Shown in pieces: positions 17,508 to 33,036 of a stretch of DNA of 64,000 nucleotides (positions are counted from its first letter, which is position 1; the number at the start of each line of letters is the position of its first letter). Under the pieces are notes generated by a model. The model was given only the letters and a program-made list of their open reading frames with translations. It ran no database searches and was not told the DNA's origin. Location: the NCBI GenBank assembly GCA_963707655.1, contig OY970172.1, positions 896,001 through 960,000 on the forward strand. Reading direction: 5' to 3'. This DNA is from an uncultured bacterium (GTDB lineage: Bacteria > Babelota > Babeliae > Babelales > Vermiphilaceae). The translations under genes and the position numbers were made by a program.

Positions 17508-19547
17508 TTAGAATTTGTATTCAAGACCAAGGTTAAGGGTAAAGGCAGTGTCGTCACCTTGGTTAGGTATGCTAACCGGCACACCTTCAGCTTGAGCGGC
17601 TTGCAATCTTTCAAGAGCTTTTTTGTGCCCGCCGTTAAATGGCAACCCTTTTATATCAGTATAATGAGCGCCCGGTACAAAGACAGAGCCTATGAAAAAG
17701 AGCTTTAAATTATCAAACAAGAAATAGTGTGCAAACAAATTTCCTTCTACACCCAAAAATGAGCGCGCGGGTTTGTCAATCGTTTTGAGTGCGCAGGCAT
17801 CAAATTTACGCGTTGCATGTTCTTGCCAAAATAAAAGCAGATTCGGATTGAATGAGACTTTTTTACAAGTCACCAGAGGCACCCACTGCACACCGGTACC
17901 CGCATAAACTAAATTGGTAAAACCATTCACCGATCTAGCATATTCAGCCGGAGATTGTACGAGATCCATTTCATCAGGCGCACTTAAAGGTCGCTTAATC
18001 TTTCCTGCGCCACCAAGAACAAACTGGCTGCGCACTTTTCTTCCCATGTATGTTTCCTGCACACCAAGGAAACCGGCATAATCGCCATCTTTGGTGGAGA
18101 AGTTTGGATTATCATCACCTGAAGCAACACCAGCTTCAAAAGCGAGCTTTAAATCTTTTTCCAGGGACCATAAAGCAAAGTCAGCTACAAACATCCATCC
18201 TTTATACGTATTTCTGTAAGGATCTCTAAAACGGTGCCTGCCATTATATAACTGATCAGGAGTGGTAACAGCTGTCGGCACATAAGGCAGCACTGCGGAT
18301 AACCCCGTCACAGGATCTCCAAGAGGCTTGCCGTTGGCTGCTTGGTCCTGCTGCGCTTCATCGATAATTTTTTGAGCAGTTTTACCCAAACTAGAAATAG
18401 CGCCTGTATCGGTTACTATTTGAGGCGCATAAGGAACTTTATATAAATCAAGATTGGCGGTAGGGGGATTTGCAAGAGGATCAGCGCCTATGTACACGTG
18501 GCTATTAACCGCGGTGATCTGACCACTTCTGTTTTGTAATTCAGTAATATTGCGATCCCAACCACGAACCTCTTGTCGACCAACGTTGAAAGCACATTCA
18601 AAGCCACACTCAATGCGGTCGCTCACATAGTCACCGGCTAATCCAAAGGTGCATAATTTGCTTCCCGCGTCGGCAACAAACTCAACGTCTTGCTCAGGAT
18701 CATTCACATACAATAGGTATGGTTCAATAATAACTTTATTTCGCGCTTTTTCATCTAATGGCATCCATCGGAAACGAGTAGCAACGGCAAAATGCACACG
18801 ACCAAACCCACGCTGAGGATTAAGGCGGTAGCCTCTTTCTTTGACACGAATATTGGCCGATGTGTCAGAAATCAAAGCACTCATATCCTCAAGAATAGCC
18901 CCATAAATGTCATAATAAAATCGTTTAGGCATAAACTCGCCGGAAACCCTAAATCCTGTAGCATATTGATCTACAAGGCCGTCAGTATAAAAACCCAAAA
19001 AGTCTTGTCCCACAGCATAGGCGGAACCAAGCGCGATACCGCGACCCAATTCAAAAGGAAAAGCTCCCAAGGTGAAGGTATGAGGATGGTTTAATGACAA
19101 ATGAAGCGCGTCAGGAATTGAAAAGCGCAACCAAGCCTCACGCATCCAAAAAATATGGCGCGGATAATAATGGCTGTGTTCACCGGTGACAATGTCACCA
19201 ATCTTGATGCTTGCGTTACTCATTTGAGCAAGAGTGCTCGGATTTCCCCAAACTCCTTTATTACGCACAGAAAACATAAATTCTGCCAACGGGTGGCCAC
19301 AAGTCTTAAGGCCCTGCACAACATTTAATGTGTAATCGAGTGTATGGCGCATAAACCAGACATTGTCAAAAGCATTACAACTGTTGAGCAAACTGATGTT
19401 TTTGCCATAGAACATATCTTCTTTAAGCGCGCCTGAGAAAAAATACTCTATATCCAGGGGTTCTTTGGTGCAAATTGGCTGACCAAAACTCGTTGAAAAA
19501 AATACCAGTGCACTCAGTGTAAACAACAGCTGTTTCATGATACGCAT
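17508..19547 (-). CDS. Probable outer-membrane beta-barrel protein
   Basis: Signal peptide, many amphipathic aromatic strands, C-terminal LNLGLEYKF (BAM-type signature). Confidence 0.7.
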   Translation of the reverse strand: MRIMKQLLFTLSALVFFSTSFGQPICTKEPLDIEYFFSGALKEDMFYGKNISLLNSCNAFDNVWFMRHTLDYTLNVVQGLKTCGHPLAEFMFSVRNKGVWGNPSTLAQMSNASIKIGDIVTGEHSHYYPRHIFWMREAWLRFSIPDALHLSLNHPHTFTLGAFPFELGRGIALGSAYAVGQDFLGFYTDGLVDQYATGFRVSGEFMPKRFYYDIYGAILEDMSALISDTSANIRVKERGYRLNPQRGFGRVHFAVATRFRWMPLDEKARNKVIIEPYLLYVNDPEQDVEFVADAGSKLCTFGLAGDYVSDRIECGFECAFNVGRQEVRGWDRNITELQNRSGQITAVNSHVYIGADPLANPPTANLDLYKVPYAPQIVTDTGAISSLGKTAQKIIDEAQQDQAANGKPLGDPVTGLSAVLPYVPTAVTTPDQLYNGRHRFRDPYRNTYKGWMFVADFALWSLEKDLKLAFEAGVASGDDNPNFSTKDGDYAGFLGVQETYMGRKVRSQFVLGGAGKIKRPLSAPDEMDLVQSPAEYARSVNGFTNLVYAGTGVQWVPLVTCKKVSFNPNLLLFWQEHATRKFDACALKTIDKPARSFLGVEGNLFAHYFLFDNLKLFFIGSVFVPGAHYTDIKGLPFNGGHKKALERLQAAQAEGVPVSIPNQGDDTAFTLNLGLEYKF

Positions 19548-19748
19548 AAGCTCCAAAATAATTTGCTTTAAATAATTATAGATACAGACCTGCCTCTTTC
19601 AAGACATCACAAAAAAAACATTATATAATAAGATGTTTTTTAGCTTATCAAGATAAAGAATTGTAGCGATTTGTCAAATGCGAAAAAAAATAAAATATTG
19701 CAACAAAGCACAATGGATAGATATTAATAAACAAATGAAAAGAAAAAT

Positions 19749-21407: not shown

Positions 21408-23474
21408 TTATTTTTGCGTAGCCGGCACTTGAATGAAGGCTTCAACCTTATCGTCAGGCTGCCATTCTGTGAAATTTTCAACCACAAAACCACACTCAAA
21501 ACCGGAATGAATCTCTTTAACGCTTCTTTTTTCTCGCTGCAAGCTGGTGATCTTTCCTTCACCAATTTTTTGCTTGCCTCGATAGATTACCAAGATGCTG
21601 TCTTTTGTAATGATACCATCTTTCACATAGCAGCCGGCAATAACGCCAACATTTTTGATATCAAATACCTTGCGTACAACAGCTTCGCCAATACGCTTTC
21701 GTGTCATTTTTACTTCTTTGGCGCTTTCGCTTACTTTCTCTAATGTTTCAAGTAGCTTATAAATAACGTCAAAGTTTTGTATTGAGACCGATAAGCGCTG
21801 AGCTAATAAATTTGCATTCGGCTCAGCCTTAATGTGCAGAGAAAAAATTTCTGACCCTGTATCGGCCGCCAGCATAACATCACTTTCATTAATGCTGCCA
21901 ATTGCTGCATGAATAATATTAAATCCTTTTTCGGTCTTGCTTGAAATTTTAGCAATAGACTCAACCAACGCTTCTTTTGAAGAATTAGTATCGGTTTTAA
22001 TAATAAGATTTTTGGCTCCTTCAGTGAGCAACTTACGGTACGCTAGGTTTTTGCGATTTTGATCGCCGCCCATCTTGATTTTGCGAACATCGTCTTTTGA
22101 CAATACTGCAAAATAGTCGCCCGCTTCTGGTTGGCTCTCAAATCCAGCAACTTGCACGGGAATTGATGGCCCAACCTCTTGCAATCTCTTGCCATATGAA
22201 TCAACCAAAGAGCTCACTTTTCCTGTCGTAAGACCACATGAGAAGTAATCGCCCACAGAGACTTTTCCTTGCTGCAATAAAAGTGTTGCAACAATGCCAC
22301 GCCCTTTTTCCAGGCGAGACTCCAGCAAATAACCGGCTCCCTGTCCTGCAACATCAGCGCGTAACTCCATCAGTTGAGACTGCAACACGATCATCTCTAG
22401 GAGAAGATCTATGCCGGTGCCATTTTTCGCAGATATGGGGACATAAATAACATTGCCGCCCCACTCCTCTGGCATTAGTCCATGATTGGAAAGATCGCGT
22501 CTTACGATATCAATGCGACTTGGGTCAACCTTGTCTATCTTGTTAATTGCAACAACAATAGGAATATCTATTTCTTTAACGTGTTTTATCGCTTCCAGCG
22601 TCTGAGGCATTATGCTATCATCGGCCGCAACAACTAAAATTGCTAAATCAGCAACTCGAATACCGCGCGCTCTCATTTTAGAAAAAGCCTCATGTCCCGG
22701 AGTATCCAAGAAAATAAGATTGCCCTGCTTGGTGTTTGCTTCGTAAGCACCAAGATGTTGCGTTATGCCACCTTTTTCACGTGCAGCAACGCGAGTGCTG
22801 CGAATGAAATCAAGCAGTGTTGTTTTTCCATGATCAACATGGCCAACAACCACGACAACAGGAAGTCTTTCTTTTACATTGTCTCCAGAAGCCAGAGCAG
22901 CAGAACGCTTAATCTCTTCTTTTTTTTGTACTAATTTTTCTGTTTTGATCTGAAAATGCTCCGCAAGGCGCGCAACAATCTCAACAGGGATCAATTGGTT
23001 TTTGTTCGAAAGTATTCCCCACTTCAACAACGTAACAATAACTTCGCTTGTGGGTTTTTGTATGATGGTAGCAAGATCCGCAACCGTTGTAGGCGCCAGA
23101 ATAAGTACGGGAGCAGGGGTTTGTATACCGACAGATTGCTTTGATCGAGGCAATGGCACTTCTCGAGTATTTTTTAAACCAGAGACATCTGGCATTATTT
23201 TTTTAGAATCAGTTGAAGCGTTGGTGTTGATCGGGGCTGTTTCCATCGTTTCCTTGTGGGTAGCTACCTGCTGGCTTAATTTTGTTGTTTCTTTGACTAG
23301 TGACTCCGACGACTGCGCTTCTTGTTTTTTGTTAAAAGTTTTATTCAAAAATTCAATTGCATCTGATGTCAAAACAGACATGTGGCTATTTACCGGAAAG
23401 CCCTCTCTGTTTAACAATTCAAGCAATTCTTTACTTGGTATGCCACTTTGTTTTGAAAATTCATACACACGCAT
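21408..23474 (-). CDS. infB: Translation initiation factor IF-2
   Basis: GHVDHGKTTLLD, GGITQHLGAY, DTPGHEAF, NKID. Confidence 0.98.
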   Translation of the reverse strand: MRVYEFSKQSGIPSKELLELLNREGFPVNSHMSVLTSDAIEFLNKTFNKKQEAQSSESLVKETTKLSQQVATHKETMETAPINTNASTDSKKIMPDVSGLKNTREVPLPRSKQSVGIQTPAPVLILAPTTVADLATIIQKPTSEVIVTLLKWGILSNKNQLIPVEIVARLAEHFQIKTEKLVQKKEEIKRSAALASGDNVKERLPVVVVVGHVDHGKTTLLDFIRSTRVAAREKGGITQHLGAYEANTKQGNLIFLDTPGHEAFSKMRARGIRVADLAILVVAADDSIMPQTLEAIKHVKEIDIPIVVAINKIDKVDPSRIDIVRRDLSNHGLMPEEWGGNVIYVPISAKNGTGIDLLLEMIVLQSQLMELRADVAGQGAGYLLESRLEKGRGIVATLLLQQGKVSVGDYFSCGLTTGKVSSLVDSYGKRLQEVGPSIPVQVAGFESQPEAGDYFAVLSKDDVRKIKMGGDQNRKNLAYRKLLTEGAKNLIIKTDTNSSKEALVESIAKISSKTEKGFNIIHAAIGSINESDVMLAADTGSEIFSLHIKAEPNANLLAQRLSVSIQNFDVIYKLLETLEKVSESAKEVKMTRKRIGEAVVRKVFDIKNVGVIAGCYVKDGIITKDSILVIYRGKQKIGEGKITSLQREKRSVKEIHSGFECGFVVENFTEWQPDDKVEAFIQVPATQK

Positions 23475-23531: not shown

Positions 23532-24596
23532 TTAATCCAATTGCTGAAACTCGCTGTCTTCCTGTGAAAATGAATCCTTTTTCTCTTCCTGAACAAGATG
23601 AAGGTTCATTCCTACCAAACGGGAGGCAAGTGAAATGTTTTGCCCCATTCTGCCAATAGCTAGAGAACGCTGATCGTCATTAACATAAATCTCTGCGTTT
23701 TCACTGTCAACAATAACAACGCGCTTCACCTCTGCAGGTTTTAAAGCGTCTTTGATGAGCTCTTCTTTGGAGTCGCTCCACGCTATAATATCAATTTTTT
23801 CGCCGCCCAATTCCTTGAGTATCGGCTTTATGCGGGCGCCACCGACCCCTACACAGGTACCAACAGGATCAATGTTTTTATCGAAAGAGGCAACAATGAC
23901 TTTTGACTTGTACCCGGAAGTGCGAACAATTTTTTTGACCTCAACCAGCTTTTCAAAAACCTCAGGTATTTCAAGTTCAAACAACTTATGCAAGAAGAAT
24001 TCTGAAGCCCGATCAAGAATTAACTGGTTTTCATTGCGCGGCTCTACCAAGACCTCTTTCAAGAGAGCTCTTATAGAGTAGCCCACAACGCATTTGTCGG
24101 TTGGCATCATGAGTGATTTTGGCAAGAAGGCAACAGTGTCTTGAAGTTTTACGATAGCGCCGCCACGTTCACATTTGTGGATAACGCCATGCACAATGGA
24201 ACCTTCTTTGTCTTTGAATTCGTTGTAGACAGCCATGGCCTCAACGCCACGTATTTTTTGGGCAATGACCTGTTTGGCCCGCAAAATTTCTATTCTGCCA
24301 ATTTTGCCATCAAAGGGAACTTTTATATTATCGCCTGCCTGGATATTGAGATCAATGGCGCGAGCTTTCTTGGCGGAAATCTCAAATTCTTCATCCTCAG
24401 GATTTCCGGCAACAACAAGCTTCTCAACCAAAATCTTCACTTCATCGGTTTTTTTGTCATGTTCAACAAAAAGATTGAGTGCAGGATAGCGTTTTTCATA
24501 GGCGGCAAAAATTCCGTCACAAACTATTGAGCTCAGAACGGCTTTATCAAGACCGCGTTCTTCTACTAATTCTTCGATAACATCAGAAAGTTTCAC
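23532..24596 (-). CDS. nusA: Transcription termination/antitermination factor NusA
   Basis: S1 and KH domains (IDPVGTCVGVGGARI, LAIGRMGQN). Start reassigned to GTG at 24596 after SD AGAGGA. Confidence 0.96.
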   Translation of the reverse strand: MKLSDVIEELVEERGLDKAVLSSIVCDGIFAAYEKRYPALNLFVEHDKKTDEVKILVEKLVVAGNPEDEEFEISAKKARAIDLNIQAGDNIKVPFDGKIGRIEILRAKQVIAQKIRGVEAMAVYNEFKDKEGSIVHGVIHKCERGGAIVKLQDTVAFLPKSLMMPTDKCVVGYSIRALLKEVLVEPRNENQLILDRASEFFLHKLFELEIPEVFEKLVEVKKIVRTSGYKSKVIVASFDKNIDPVGTCVGVGGARIKPILKELGGEKIDIIAWSDSKEELIKDALKPAEVKRVVIVDSENAEIYVNDDQRSLAIGRMGQNISLASRLVGMNLHLVQEEKKDSFSQEDSEFQQLD

Positions 24597-24844
24597 TGTA
24601 GATTTGTCCTCTAAATAAATTTTATAGCTCAGCAAAATCCTACTGACCGCCCGCGGGATAGAGAATGTGCATTTTTGGGAGCATGGGTTTAGTGTAATAT
24701 AAACTTGTTTTTCTAGCAAGTTTAATATCCACAAAGAACAATTTTAGCATGGTAAAGGGCTTTTTTCTCCCTAGACACTTATTTTTGCGGGCTTGGGGGG
24801 TACATCCTGTCGCCTAGCCAACTTTAGGTCCCTGCGGCGAACGC

Positions 24845-25168
24845 TTATTATTATATTTTATATATATATTTATATACTTAATAATAATAGGCGAACCGGT
24901 TTTTGGTGGATAACTTTGCAAATATCTTTAAAAAACCTTATAAGTAAGCCATTTTTTTAAAAAAACTTCTGGTGGATAAGTGGTGGATAAGTGGCAAAAA
25001 GTGGTGGATAACTTTGTGGAAAACCTTGCGATTGGTCTATTGATCGATGTTCCGCTGGTGGATAACTATGGGAATTACTTCTGGTTGGCATTATCCGAGT
25101 TACGTAAAAATTGACCAAAATGAGTTATCCACCAGTTATCCACCACTTATCCACCAAGTTATCCACCA
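24845..25168. other. Probable chromosomal replication origin (oriC)
   Basis: AT-rich tract 24845-24878, TAA-TAA-TAA-TAG trios 24879-24890, and nine exact TTATCCACCA boxes (five reverse, four forward) in a gene-free gap. Confidence 0.85.
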
Positions 25169-25273
25169 GACAGCAAGGGTCGTAATTTTTTTATTGTTTT
25201 GCTTATTGTTTCAAGTTGAATTTTTAAGGAGGCTGGGACCACCACCCCCCCCATGATCTTTGTTTTATAGATG

Positions 25274-26788
25274 TTACGAGATGTATTCTGCCAGGAGTTC
25301 TATCCAGCTGTTCGTGTTGGCAAAAATTGTTTTGCGGTATGAGTTATGTATTTTGTTTTCAGGGAAATAGATTGATATTCCGCCGGCTTGACTCAGATTG
25401 GGTCCCACAACGTTTGCAAAGGCAATATCTTTAATGAGGGCGCGCCCTTGCGTTAAGAGTTGATCGAGGGTGTGAAGGAGCATGTTGTTTGGTTTATTAA
25501 AAACAAAGTGTTTTAAATTTGTTTTTAAGTTAACATACAGGTGACGCAGATCAACATAGCTTGGTTCGTCAAAATGCGTACACAGGAGCTTGTTTTTGCT
25601 GGCGCGAATTGCATTTTTTACCGATTTGTCTTTTTGAATCCCTATTGCTTCAATCAAAAGAGTCGCAACAGAGCCAACATTGGCTTCGAGCTCTTTGATT
25701 TTGTCAAGGTCGAGGGCTGCAAGGGTGTAATCGTCGGTAATTTTTTTGTAATTTTCTCCATAGCTCTCAACAATGTGTTGCGCAAATTGCTTCGGGGAAA
25801 GCGTTGCCTGCGTGAAGGGCTTCATTATGTTGTCGTAGCGCCAGCCGGCACCCAATTCCAACTCTTGTGATGCCACCATAATATGACCGTATTCTCTGAC
25901 AATATTTCCTATTTCCAACATCGACATTAAACATGCGTCAAACCCGATAATATCGAACTTTTTTCCTTGCAAAGCGGTGCGGCATATCTGATTAAGCGCT
26001 ATTGTCAGCGCTTGATTGTTTAGGTAGTTACCTGTTGTGTCATCCCAACACATTCCGCGCTCTTTGAGTTGGTTGTCCATGCGGCTGATAAAATCGAGGA
26101 AGCCGATCGACCGGTCAATTTCAAGCTTGTTGGTAACGGGATTGAAGGTAAACAGGGTTGATGGGTTAACTATTCGACCATGTATGGGGTCAACAACTCC
26201 CGAGCCATGATTCCACAGGATTAACGCATGGTGATTGGCGGGAAAGCGTTGAATCGCCCATGTGCAAAATGAAACAAGGGTTTGCGCAGATCCGCTGTCT
26301 AGAGGCTGATCCATACTGTCCACGTCGGCAATATGTGTCATTGTATCTTTTTCGATGTAGTAACGACGAGTGATTTTTTTGTTGTGCGAGATGCGAGTGT
26401 GTAGCTCAACAATGATGTTGATGTGCAATGTTGAGCCAATTGCGGCAAGTTGTTGCAAGTTGCGCGCACCAAATCCACGCAAATCATTATCTGCTGCCAT
26501 ATATACGAGAAAGGTCCAATCTTTTTTTTGTTGCTCAAAATCGCTGGCGATGTGTTGCTCAATGAGAATCTTTGCTCTTTCTGCAACAGAACACTCTGCC
26601 GATTGCTCGTCGATAATATTTAATATCTCTGAAAAATCTGCGGAGATTTCTTGTTGTTGCGACATGTTGCTTTGTTCAAATGATATTTCTTCTATTGGTA
26701 TGGCAAGAAAGTTGCAATAGTTGCTTGTTATGCTGAGCAGGCTCAGTATGCACGAAATAAATTTGTTTTTTTTTGCAATCTTTAACAC
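25274..26788 (-). CDS. Clostripain-family (C11) cysteine peptidase, probably exported
   Basis: WTFLVYMAADNDL, ILWNHGSG (catalytic His), IIGFDACLM (catalytic Cys), VASQE. Start at GTG 26788 after SD AAGGGG. Confidence 0.9.
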   Translation of the reverse strand: MLKIAKKNKFISCILSLLSITSNYCNFLAIPIEEISFEQSNMSQQQEISADFSEILNIIDEQSAECSVAERAKILIEQHIASDFEQQKKDWTFLVYMAADNDLRGFGARNLQQLAAIGSTLHINIIVELHTRISHNKKITRRYYIEKDTMTHIADVDSMDQPLDSGSAQTLVSFCTWAIQRFPANHHALILWNHGSGVVDPIHGRIVNPSTLFTFNPVTNKLEIDRSIGFLDFISRMDNQLKERGMCWDDTTGNYLNNQALTIALNQICRTALQGKKFDIIGFDACLMSMLEIGNIVREYGHIMVASQELELGAGWRYDNIMKPFTQATLSPKQFAQHIVESYGENYKKITDDYTLAALDLDKIKELEANVGSVATLLIEAIGIQKDKSVKNAIRASKNKLLCTHFDEPSYVDLRHLYVNLKTNLKHFVFNKPNNMLLHTLDQLLTQGRALIKDIAFANVVGPNLSQAGGISIYFPENKIHNSYRKTIFANTNSWIELLAEYIS

Positions 26789-27002
26789 GGCATCCCCTTT
26801 TAGTTTTCTCTGGTACTTTTCCCTCTCTGTAGCATATGAATTTGGTGAACAAATAATCAATGGTTTTTTGCGAAATTTGTATGTCAGTAGTGGTTTTACT
26901 CATGTGGTCTCGATATCATGAGCGTGTGGCGTGATTTGAGTGATTCGATCGAGGTCGGAGTGTTGCGCTAAGGGTCTTCTTAATAGCTCTTTCTATGGTG
27001 AG

Positions 27003-28131
27003 TTATTGCCCATGAGGCAAAGCGTATTTTTTGTTGCTTTGTAGCGTGCTATAAAAAATAATAGCGAAAGTAAGGAAAAAGCTCAGTTGAAAATCAAGGA
27101 AAAAGAGTTGCATGGGATTGTATAAAATGGTGCATAGGGTGATGATGGCGATAGAATGAAGCCCTTGTAGCGGCACGTGTGCAAGTGATCCAATCTTTGA
27201 AAGAATAAATACCCACAGGGCCCGATAAAAAGAGATGCTGCTCCAGCTCAACAAGGTGTACATGGCAACGATACCAATCAAGAGACTATTTTTGAGCCAA
27301 AATCTACACGGTATAAAGGCAAAAAGAGCCTGCCAAAGCATAATACAGATTACCAAGTGTAATCCTGAACGAGCAAGGTAGTGCGATATTCCCCATTGCA
27401 AACATTCTTCTTTGATGCTTTGCGTAGTGGGTTGTTGCTTTTGTTGCTTTCCGAGAAAAAGTGAAGAAAAAAGAGCTGCTGTTTGCTCGGAAAACTTTTT
27501 TATCAAAGAGCGATACGTATTTATAGCATAGGCATTAATGCCACGCGTAAATGAATAGGTGGGACGATGCACGATCGTATAGGAAAGTTTTGATTCAAAG
27601 ATAGTTGCAACTGATTTCTCTTTTATTAAATAGCGTGCAAAAGAACTGTTATTATTTTTTTTTATTTTTATATCGCGCACTTCAATGGTGTCACCTATAC
27701 ACAAATCAGCAACATTGTTGGCATAAACATGTACGGCGTGCGGATGATAGTCTGTTGCTATTGTATTAGTTAAGTGTGAAAGCGTAATAACAACTTGATT
27801 TTTAAAATGGGGATTTTCAGTCTGTTCTATTTTTTTGATAGTACCTTTAAATGAACAGGTGCTGCCGGCAAAAATCTGGTGAAAAAGGTTAAAATGATAA
27901 AGTTGCTGCTGATAGCGAAACGCGCCACAGGCAAAGAAAAGGGGTATCAGCAATAAAAGAGGTTGTCGGGCAAGCTCTCCTTTAATAAGCATGAGAGAGA
28001 ACAAAGATGGCAAATAAAATAACGGGCGCCAGTGTATATCCAAAAAAAGCAGCGCATACGCCAACCATTAATGCTATGGTTGCAAAGAACAGTGGATGAA
28101 AATGTGGCGTAGAAAAATAATAGATAAGCAT
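27003..28131 (-). pseudogene. comEC: ComEC/Rec2 competence protein with a +1 frameshift near the 5' end
   Basis: WGISHYLARSGLH, S..RA and FQLSF motifs. The N-terminus (ATG 28131, MLIYYFSTPHFHPLFFATIALMVGVCAAF) is in a different frame from the main ORF 27003-28064. Confidence 0.75.
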
Positions 28132-31761: not shown

Positions 31762-33036
31762 TTAAAAACTAACGCTTATATTGGCGCCGATTACGGGAAC
31801 AAGCGCAATGTTTTTTCCTTTAAATGGAATGCGCGCATATGCTGATACATACGGAATAGCATGGCTTTCTTTTGTGCAATGATCTGAAAAATCATAATCA
31901 GCAACAACGTATATATGGTGCATAACCCATTCTTGCAAGCTTGTTGCCGTGTTGGCAACATTTGTTGAGAAAGCGCATGTTGCAAATGAAAGGGTGTCGG
32001 CATCATGCTTAAAAAACTGATACCCAAGTTTGAGTGATGCGCCGCCAAGACAATTGTATATTTGAGCGTATAAATTGAATCGCTGGTAAAGCCCCCAGTC
32101 TCGATACGCATACACTTTTTGCAACAAAAGCAGCTCGGTTTGATTAGTAGCGGTCTTTATTCTGCGTTCCCGTGAGTTGCCAAAAAGGTGAAGCAATTCA
32201 ACATCCAGTCCAAGCTTCATGACATAAGAGAGCAATACATCAATGCCACCGCCACCAAAAACTCCATATGCGCCATCGTAGCCAAAAGGGACTGCCATGA
32301 CGAGGTTTTCATTTTGCTTTAAACCGGTTGGTATATTAAATCCAAAGCGGCCATTCAAACTCACTTCTTTGAGCATCGGGCGATTTTCATTTTGTGGAAA
32401 ATCTTTAAAAAATTCAACCCAAGTAACCAGATCGCCGGCTCCTTTTCTGTCCCAAGGACCGAGCCATAAACCGCCCAACTGCTCAGCATTTGCATAAATA
32501 TTATCGGTCAAAAGCTCTTTTACGGTAAGGTCTTGCGCAGTAAGGTCTTGTGTTTGGTCCACCCAGTCAACATTGGTAAGACTGAGTCCGTAAAAAGGAA
32601 GGTATGCAGATAAACAAAAATTTTCCCAAAAAAAGTAGCGGCCGGTAACGGCAAAAGTCCAGTTCATGTTAAGGTTACCCGTTGTGTCAAAATGGCCTCG
32701 TACGCCATTATCGGTCGCGTTTATTTCCGCGTTGAGAATACTTATAGGGCTATCGGCAGGAAAGCCATCGAGCATGGCAAGGGCATCTTGCGTTGGACTT
32801 AAAATCTGCAAAACGTTGCAGGCGGGGTTGCCTCCTAAATCATAACCGGTAGCTTTTTTAACGCCAAATTCCCCATAGAAGTTCAGCTGCATGCCTTTGC
32901 ATATTTTTTGATCCGGCCTTAAAAGCGTATCATAGGGGCGGAGCCAGTTAAATTGCCCCAAGGCGTTAAGCGTTGTTGTTTTTGTTAAAAGAAGAGTGAT
33001 AAGAAAAAAAGATAACTGTTTTTTATATCTGATCAT
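31762..33036 (-). CDS. Probable outer-membrane beta-barrel protein
   Basis: Signal peptide, amphipathic strands, terminal Phe (GANISVSF). Confidence 0.65.
   Translation of the reverse strand: MIRYKKQLSFFLITLLLTKTTTLNALGQFNWLRPYDTLLRPDQKICKGMQLNFYGEFGVKKATGYDLGGNPACNVLQILSPTQDALAMLDGFPADSPISILNAEINATDNGVRGHFDTTGNLNMNWTFAVTGRYFFWENFCLSAYLPFYGLSLTNVDWVDQTQDLTAQDLTVKELLTDNIYANAEQLGGLWLGPWDRKGAGDLVTWVEFFKDFPQNENRPMLKEVSLNGRFGFNIPTGLKQNENLVMAVPFGYDGAYGVFGGGGIDVLLSYVMKLGLDVELLHLFGNSRERRIKTATNQTELLLLQKVYAYRDWGLYQRFNLYAQIYNCLGGASLKLGYQFFKHDADTLSFATCAFSTNVANTATSLQEWVMHHIYVVADYDFSDHCTKESHAIPYVSAYARIPFKGKNIALVPVIGANISVSF

Follow-up and report, generated by a model that had tools for sequence, protein, structure and literature searches.

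A predicted chromosomal origin beside nusA in a Dependentiae bacterium and the family-typical spelling of its DnaA boxes

The Locus and Its Features

The DNA analysed here (the window) is a stretch of 64,000 nt corresponding to C1:896001-960000 of a genome that consists of a single contig (C1) of 1,091,075 bp (~1.09 Mb). The bacterium that carries it is a small parasitic member of the Dependentiae (Babeliales). Between nusA and a gene for a C11 peptidase, the window holds a cluster of DnaA boxes next to an AT-rich tract. The features of this region and its surroundings, given in window positions, are the following:

21408-23474: infB, downstream of nusA and transcribed away from the origin
23532..24596, minus strand: nusA (Pfam NusA_N, KH_5, S1), transcribed away from the origin
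24725..24733, plus strand: box ATATCCACA with one mismatch, in the interval that separates nusA from the AT tract
24826..24855, plus strand: far-side GC cluster (AGGTCCCTGCGGCGAACG) and CTTATTATTATA, an opposite-strand mirror of the trio set, without a box in this genome
24845..24889: AT-rich tract, presumed DNA-unwinding element, A/T in 44 of 45 bases
24879..24890, plus strand: four DnaA-trios TAA TAA TAA TAG (3'-GAT AAT AAT AAT-5'), with the GAT trio closest to the box
24891..24903: GC-rich spacer GCGAACCGGTTTT, 14 nt when counted from the 9-mer box
24904..24913, minus strand: box TTATCCACCA of the unwinding module, pointing to the AT tract
24970..25065, minus strand: array on the AT-tract side, in the orientation of the module box, with exact boxes at 24970, 24981, 25002, and 25056, TTTTCCACA at 25015, and the degenerate GTGGCAAAA at 24991
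25125..25168, plus strand: distal array of four exact boxes turned the other way, at intervals of 11, 11, and 12 bp
25274..26860, minus strand: gene for a C11 (clostripain-family) peptidase (Pfam), the conserved far-side neighbour in relatives
27003-28064: ComEC-like gene (Pfam), beyond the C11 peptidase gene, with synteny in relatives

The true start of nusA is likely the GTG at 24596, and not the TTG at 24734 to which the mechanically delimited open reading frame extends, because the NusA proteins of relatives align from residue ~44-49 of that frame, where the protein would begin with VKLSDVIEELVEERGLD and is preceded by AGAGGA. Two long open reading frames near the origin gave no Pfam match at E<=0.001 (17508-19556, minus strand, 682 aa; 31762-33036, minus strand, 424 aa). 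A scan of 24000-25800 against Rfam returned two far sub-threshold matches, with 21.3 bits (gathering 40) and 19 (gathering 533), which were taken as chance.

The Box Cluster

The first-pass annotation of this DNA had described nine exact copies of a non-canonical DnaA box, and all nine copies of TTATCCACCA were recovered, starting at 24904, 24970, 24981, 25002, and 25056 on the minus strand and at 25125, 25136, 25147, and 25159 on the plus strand. The phasing by about one helical turn was reproduced as well, since neighbouring tandem copies are spaced 11, 11, 11, and 12 bp (the remaining gaps being 21, 54, and 66 bp), and so were the two canonical-type boxes with one mismatch, ATATCCACA at 24725 (+) and TTTTCCACA at 25015 (-). 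The nine copies all read TTATCCAC; that is, positions 1-8 are TTATnCAC, as in the canonical box TTATnCACA, but the canonical A at position 9 is absent, with C in 9/9 exact boxes of the window (C9). The flanks differ among the nine copies.

In 100 dinucleotide-preserving shuffles, the window is expected to hold a mean of 0.11 copies of TTATCCACCA (sd 0.37, maximum 2), and nine or more were obtained in 0/100. Genome-wide, the exact 10-mer occurs 11 times, nine of them inside 24904-25168, and the 9-mer TTATCCACC occurs 12 times, again with nine in the cluster. The canonical TTATCCACA has seven copies in the genome, all dispersed, and two other 9-mers, TTATCCACG and TTATCCACT, have eight and five copies, respectively. 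When up to one mismatch is allowed, the cluster reaches 11 boxes per 500 bp, and the next-best 500-bp stretch of the whole genome reaches 3-4. These nine exact and two one-mismatch boxes lie within 445 bp and form the sole such cluster in the genome.

The module box is separated by 56 bp from the reverse array, which is in turn separated by 59 bp from the forward array. Both opposed arrays (minus boxes at 24970-25065 and plus boxes at 25125-25168) are built of units of 11-12 bp, about one helical turn each. These units are not of the low-affinity, ATP-DnaA-specific type, but exact copies of the strongest box of the origin. GATC shows no enrichment, with one site in the 325 bp of 24844-25168 and a window mean of 3.5 per kb.

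The Predicted Unwinding Module

DnaA-trios follow the motif 3'-[G/A]A[T/A]-5' and have a GC cluster before them, as stated in the accessible text of PMC7561715. The basal unwinding system (BUS), in the accessible text of PMC8287927, combines a spacer of at most 16 bp (13 being the commonest) with three or more trios that carry A in the middle, the one nearest the box being most often GAT. The locus described here has a 14-nt spacer followed by CTA TTA TTA TTA, which agrees with that description. According to the same part of PMC8287927, the commonest form of BUS (57%) has a co-oriented tandem pair of boxes beside the trios, and modules with a single box are also accepted. No second co-oriented box was found beside the trios of this genome, which have a single exact box next to them and no 9-mer resembling a box in the spacer GCGAACCGGTTTT. 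The module box is the only exact box genome-wide that has at least four trio-type triplets and an AT tract next to it; three one-mismatch boxes elsewhere fit the pattern. In two relatives (G119, locus L047, and G096, locus L046), the AT core lies between two inward-facing sets of box, GC spacer, and trios, in a fully symmetric arrangement.

Position of the Predicted Chromosomal Origin

The proposal, made from the sequence alone, that the cluster is an origin is borne out by the skew minimum, by its being the sole box cluster in the genome, and by the presence of the unwinding module. Computed in 1-kb bins, the cumulative GC skew is lowest at 921,000 and highest at 373,000; the position of the cluster is 920,904-921,168. 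The turning points are the same with the raw or the detrended curve, and the skew switches from negative to positive at the cluster. The skew minimum coincides with the only box cluster, and the cluster is therefore regarded as the chromosomal origin (oriC).

The leading strand is usually G-rich, and the polarity of the origin rests on this rule. No gene-strand bias was observed between the two replication halves over the whole genome (54.6% vs 52.3% of long-ORF length on the plus strand). A whole-genome search for dif with an IUPAC consensus yielded no convincing site, but five ties at 23/28 matches. One of these five 28-mers, at C1:374,652, has an intact TTATGTTAAA arm and is 1.7 kb away from the skew maximum.

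The genome has a single dnaA gene (460 aa, C1:335,421-336,803; PF00308, E=1.3e-66), whose product matches the structure of B. subtilis DnaA with E=4e-105. This gene is at least 505 kb from the origin either way round. The gene dnaN is located at C1:377,702-378,322, and dnaA and dnaN, ~41 kb apart, are not adjacent to each other. Both are near the skew maximum (373 kb, the presumed terminus), which is unusual.

Such a distribution of genes might be read the other way. As dnaA (335 kb) and dnaN (378 kb) are close to 373 kb, where the skew has its second turning point, and the gene-strand bias leaves the polarity unsettled, the true origin could be sought near dnaA/dnaN, at 335-378 kb, and the cluster would then be a locus for DnaA titration or control (similar to datA or DARS) or the site of some other protein that binds the repeats. 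This is, in our view, very improbable. There is no box cluster near dnaA/dnaN, where the density of one-mismatch boxes does not exceed three in 500 bp (343 kb), with two such boxes in 372-380 kb, and no conserved boxes were found upstream of dnaA across 39 genomes beyond scattered one-mismatch matches. Moreover, trios and an AT tract forming an unwinding module are present only at the 921-kb cluster, the sign of the skew fits an origin at the cluster, and the origin of a published Dependentiae genome was also placed by skew and box, according to the accessible text of PMC6561590.

The explanation that we favour, taken as a whole, is very probably correct: an oriC at 24844-25168, where DnaA would open the AT tract by means of the trios, and where C at position 9 and A at position 10 (C9-A10) would be a box variant of the family maintained by selection. 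The anatomy of the sequence, the position on the skew curve, and the conservation on which this explanation draws are observations. What we infer from the sequence is that DnaA binds and unwinds the locus, together with a possible preference of the protein for C9. DnaA would bind the nine boxes of consensus strength, and the box at 24904-24913, 14 nt from the four trios, would direct an ATP-DnaA oligomer onto the trios of the plus strand (3'-GAT AAT AAT AAT-5'). Once on the trios, the ATP-DnaA oligomer may open the 45-bp AT tract in a manner like that of the basal unwinding system of B. subtilis. The DnaA that would bind the C9-A10 box retains four of the six base-contact residues regarded as canonical.

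Conservation of the Layout across the Phylum

The phylum was sampled with 121 genomes, including the one under study, and ~40 origin loci were read. Tandem TTATCCAC boxes 11-12 bp apart were found in 91/121 sampled genomes. The arrays follow each other in reverse-then-forward order in the ~40 loci that were read. The common plan of these loci starts with a reverse array and a spacer, after which come a forward array, a gap of 55-65 bp, a single box, 13-14 nt, CTA TTA TTA TTA, and an AT tract; in the genome under study, this plan is flipped. The spacer between both arrays is usually ~90-145 bp long, and it is reduced to ~40-60 bp in several genomes, including the one under study. A strict pattern for the module (box, spacer, trios, and AT tract) was found in 25/41 origin loci, with a spacer of 13-14 nt in 23/25.

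NusA is encoded beside the AT-tract side in 34/37 loci, and the other three (G088, G120, and G001) end at a contig edge. The C11 peptidase is encoded on the opposite side in at least 33/37 loci, counted on the best four matches per locus. In 30/30 relatives checked, dnaA either belongs to a different contig from the origin or is hundreds of kb away from it. The layout of the origin and its place beside nusA thus recur across the phylum.

The spacer between the arrays holds no 6- or 7-mer motif that is widely shared beyond A-tracts, and a word similar to CGATCTAGAGC appears in some genera only. A CGATCT(A/G)GAGC-like word is present in the middle of the spacer in some genera (for instance, at loci L060, L067, L064, and L079), but not phylum-wide, and the genome under study carries TTGATCGATG at 25038-25047 in this spacer. 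In other genomes, the forward array is expanded, to at least 11 units in G004 (L078, with an N-run inside) and to 20 units at L112, which has 25 boxes in all. These expanded arrays suggest that such arrays are prone to slippage and hard to assemble.

In a scan for tandem C9 boxes across all species, the multi-match loci with boxes in both orientations were titled, among the matches listed (at least 120 loci), Candidatus Dependentiae, Babeliales, Babeliaceae, and Vermiphilus pyriformis; a few loci with both orientations were labelled, also among the matches listed, as 'uncultured Pseudomonadota' or 'uncultured bacterium'. Tandem pairs of TTATCCACC within mixed clusters of A9 and C9 boxes were seen, among the matches listed, at L103, L144, L161, and L163 (Kroppenstedtia, Raineyaceae, Paraburkholderia, and Ktedonobacteraceae), and several Paludibacteraceae genomes among the matches listed have tandem TTATCCACC pairs at multiple loci, possibly as part of a repeat element. 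Since tandem C9 pairs are found in clusters of other phyla, C9 as such seems to be widely tolerated.

Base 9 of the Box

The spelling of position 9 was compared in two ways. In the first one, the tandem units with any base at this position were set against those with C9 in the same 120 relatives. The C9 units among all tandem units are, by family:

f1 (the family of the window): 180/185
f6: 42/57
f3: 15/32
f13: 17/44
f14: 2/9
f11: 1/28
f5: 1/22
f12: 0/14
f7: 0/13
f19: 0/7
f4: 0/6
f18: 0/4
all families other than f1: 78/236

In the second one, 335 exact boxes were collected from the origin loci of nine f1 genomes (nine genera) and 31 genomes of other families, and a box was considered solitary or terminal when no further box followed at 11-12 bp. 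The exact boxes with C9 are:

solitary or terminal boxes: f1, 38/38; other families, 13/106 (A9 in 93/106)
boxes internal to arrays: f1, 44/48; other families, 76/143

Altogether, C9 is found in 82/86 exact boxes of the nine f1 genomes. Position 9 is either A or C, and never G or T, in the 335 exact boxes, and C9 is followed by A10 in 82/82 boxes of f1 and in 86/89 of the other families. In f6, solitary boxes are TTATCCACAT in 32/32 cases. The f1 genomes without exact tandems retain C9 on altered cores, namely TTATGCACC and TTATCAACC in G010 and TTATTAACC in G003. Upstream of nusA in these two genomes (loci L088 and L085, respectively), altered boxes alternate as TTATGCACCAC/TTATCAACCAC and as TTATTAACCAG/TTATCAACC with TTATCCACC, with C9 throughout.

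Nevertheless, this spelling is not exclusive. A9 is found in 4/48 internal boxes of the f1 arrays, in G001, G017, and G021, the first of which belongs to the genus of the window itself and has one A9 unit. Families other than f1 have A9 and C9 boxes together in one origin. Many origins are mixed in this way (G127, G084, G086, G061, G093, G037, G120, G085, and G075), and the genus g29 includes an all-A9 origin (G029) as opposed to the C9 tandem units of G058 and G115. The first-pass annotation had proposed that this lineage uses a different box, possibly of 10 bp. The part of this proposal that holds is that the C9-A10 spelling is a real trait of the lineage (180/185 tandem units and 38/38 solitary boxes). 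The part that does not hold is a clean replacement of TTATCCACA, given the A9 units within f1. Accordingly, TTATCCACCA is a genuine consensus of the family f1 that looks selected, but C9 does not represent a clean substitution of the canonical box, as the phylum uses A or C and tandem arrays tolerate either of them.

An explanation without selection would be that DnaA does not read position 9, and that the identical copies originated by repeat homogenisation (slippage or conversion) together with neutral drift. Tandem units indeed tend to be uniform within each genome (CAC in G036, G015, and G004; AGG or AAG in G079), and the arrays differ widely in length, between 11 and 25 boxes (G004 and L112), as expected for slippage. 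We nonetheless consider this explanation improbable. Homogenisation is difficult to reconcile with the restriction of position 9 to A or C among the 335 exact boxes and with the differing flanks of the nine copies of the window. Besides, slippage in tandem arrays cannot homogenise solitary boxes, and these are uniform, with C in f1 (38/38) and A-T in f6 (32/32). The presence of C9-A10 in 38/38 solitary f1 boxes, despite their unconserved flanks, argues for selection and against drift.

The DnaA Protein and Base 9

Domain IV of DnaA was compared by tblastn and alignment in 39 genomes (nine of f1 and 30 of other families). The DnaA encoded by the genome under study aligns without gaps to domain IV of E. 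coli DnaA (1J1V), with E=1e-15. For numbering, the chain of 1J1V was taken to start at residue 374, which we assume to be correct, and all six named residues then fit their letters. Of the six domain IV residues that contact the bases in E. coli, R399, D433, H434, and H439 are kept, and P423R and T435S are changed, with neither change tracking base 9. The list of the six base-contact residues of E. coli DnaA derives from the accessible texts of PMC7561715, PMC5043019, and PMC5742627.

Both changes were rejected as the cause of C9. Position 423 is Arg, with Lys or Ser in a few of the 39 genomes, and a basic residue is present in 37/39 regardless of base 9. At position 435, the 39 genomes have Ser, Thr, or Ala, unrelated to base 9, and DnaA proteins with either Ser435 or Thr435 serve both A9-only and C9-rich origins: Ser435 is found together with all-A9 origins in G079, G103, G059, G071, G081, and G089, and Thr435 together with C9 arrays in G064, G058, and G115. 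The DnaA of G010 has N433, T435, and K438.

Other positions do separate the family of the window from the remaining ones. Position 424 is D in 8/9 f1 genomes vs E in 30/30 of the other families, position 431 is G, E, or D in 9/9 vs R or K in 30/30, and position 432 is R in 9/9 vs K in 24/30. However, E. coli shares G431 and R432 with f1 (E424 is not the f1 state). Since the contrast between f1 and the other families is one phylogenetic split, and positions 431 and 432 are as in E. coli, these residues are candidates and not an explanation.

The reading put forward in the first-pass annotation was that the DnaA of the f1 lineage has changed its specificity and prefers the 10-bp TTATCCACCA over TTATCCACA. 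The solitary or terminal boxes point in this direction, being C9-A10 in 38/38 cases over nine f1 genomes and nine genera with unconserved flanks, and A9 in 93/106 cases in other families, as do the retention of C9 on the varied cores TTATGCACC and TTATCAACC (G010) and TTATTAACC (G003) and the separation of f1 by positions 424, 431, and 432. Nevertheless, the f1 residues G431 and R432 match, in the 1J1V alignment, those of E. coli, whose box has A9, and the split between f1 and the other families is a single one and does not provide independent evidence. Furthermore, A9 units exist in f1 arrays (4/48 internal boxes; G001, G017, and G021), Ser435 does not track base 9, and identical recognition helices are associated with all-A9 and with C9 origins in f13 (G079 vs G036) and in g29 (G029 vs G058). 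With this balance, a changed specificity is a serious candidate whose chances we place a little below even. Much the same caution applies to the narrower statement that the C9-A10 spelling reflects a changed preference of DnaA, which we regard as somewhat doubtful.

A broader version, held still more tentatively, is a co-divergence of DnaA and box at the family level within the Dependentiae. According to it, f1 would read TTATCCACCA and, at its solitary sites, a sister family TTATCCACAT, what determines this would be outside of the six textbook contacts (with 424, 431, and 432 as candidates), and cooperative arrays would tolerate the non-preferred spelling.

Significance of the Base-9 Variation

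The new part of this work is the analysis of base 9, the origin itself being made of standard parts. Because origin finders and the published annotations of Dependentiae genomes assume TTATCCACA, boxes that all end in C are found only when one mismatch is tolerated. The phylum constitutes an unusually clean natural series, in which the same layout is found in the same place, with positions 9 and 10 differing between families and also among members of one genus. The series makes it testable how much discrimination DnaA exercises at the 3' end of the box and which residues determine it. If the co-divergence is true, it would offer natural pairs of closely related DnaA proteins and boxes with which to map the reading of positions 9 and 10.

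Comparison with Known Systems

Within the same phylum, the origin of Chromulinavorax destructans was placed by GC skew and DnaA box, according to the accessible text of PMC6561590. Unlike here, only the canonical TTATCCACA is named there as the presumptive box, and that accessible text includes neither an architecture of the origin nor the C9 variant. In Bifidobacterium longum, TTATCCACC is the 'type E' box, one of the seven box types of oriC, in the accessible text of PMC2430713; it is a minority variant in that species, in contrast to the genome under study, where it is the sole exact form at the origin and the consensus of f1. Another match in the literature that paired TTATCCACC with DnaA was discarded, as the sequence belongs to a primer. 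In the full-text literature (main articles) retrieved for TTATCCACC with DnaA or for Dependentiae/TM6 with DnaA, neither a C9 consensus nor an origin with this layout was found described.

A departure from TTATCCACA that is typical of a lineage is also seen in the 12-mer of Thermotoga maritima and in the variants of the Epsilonproteobacteria. The box of Thermotoga, too, has CCACC at its end. In the genome under study, unlike in Thermotoga, only base 9 (and base 10) differs, and four of the six base-contact residues are kept, P423R and T435S being the only differences. By contrast, the base-contact residues of Thermotoga DnaA all differ except for one arginine, as reported in the accessible text of PMC7561715.

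The unwinding module resembles that of B. subtilis, in which box and trios presumably have the same relative orientation; the orientation found here was compared with that of E. coli oriC. The box, the 14-nt spacer (at most 16), a run of three or more trios centred on A, of which the first one is 3'-GAT-5', and the AT tract are shared with BUS as described in the accessible texts of PMC8287927 and PMC10721633. The module differs in having one exact box instead of a pair, a mirror trio set beyond the AT core, and a location away from dnaA.

The resemblance to oriC of E. coli extends to the whole arrangement: AT tract, NAN triplets, GC spacer, a box directed toward the tract, opposed arrays, and a phasing of ~11 bp. 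In the sequence of NC_000913.3, the order TATTAGGAT-CGCACTGCCC-TGTGGATAA is read on the left, and R4, which is TTATCCACA, is in forward orientation at the far right; the left and right halves of E. coli oriC have opposite box orientation, according to the accessible text of PMC5742627. Differences are also clear. The arrays of the origin described here consist of exact boxes of consensus strength, in contrast to the low-affinity ATP-DnaA sites of E. coli; GATC is not enriched (one in 325 bp); base 9 is C; and the neighbours are nusA and the C11 peptidase gene instead of mnmG and mioC. Judging from its sequence, this origin appears to be an ordinary DnaA-dependent one, although unusually tidy, which combines arrays similar to those of E. 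coli with an unwinding module of the B. subtilis type.
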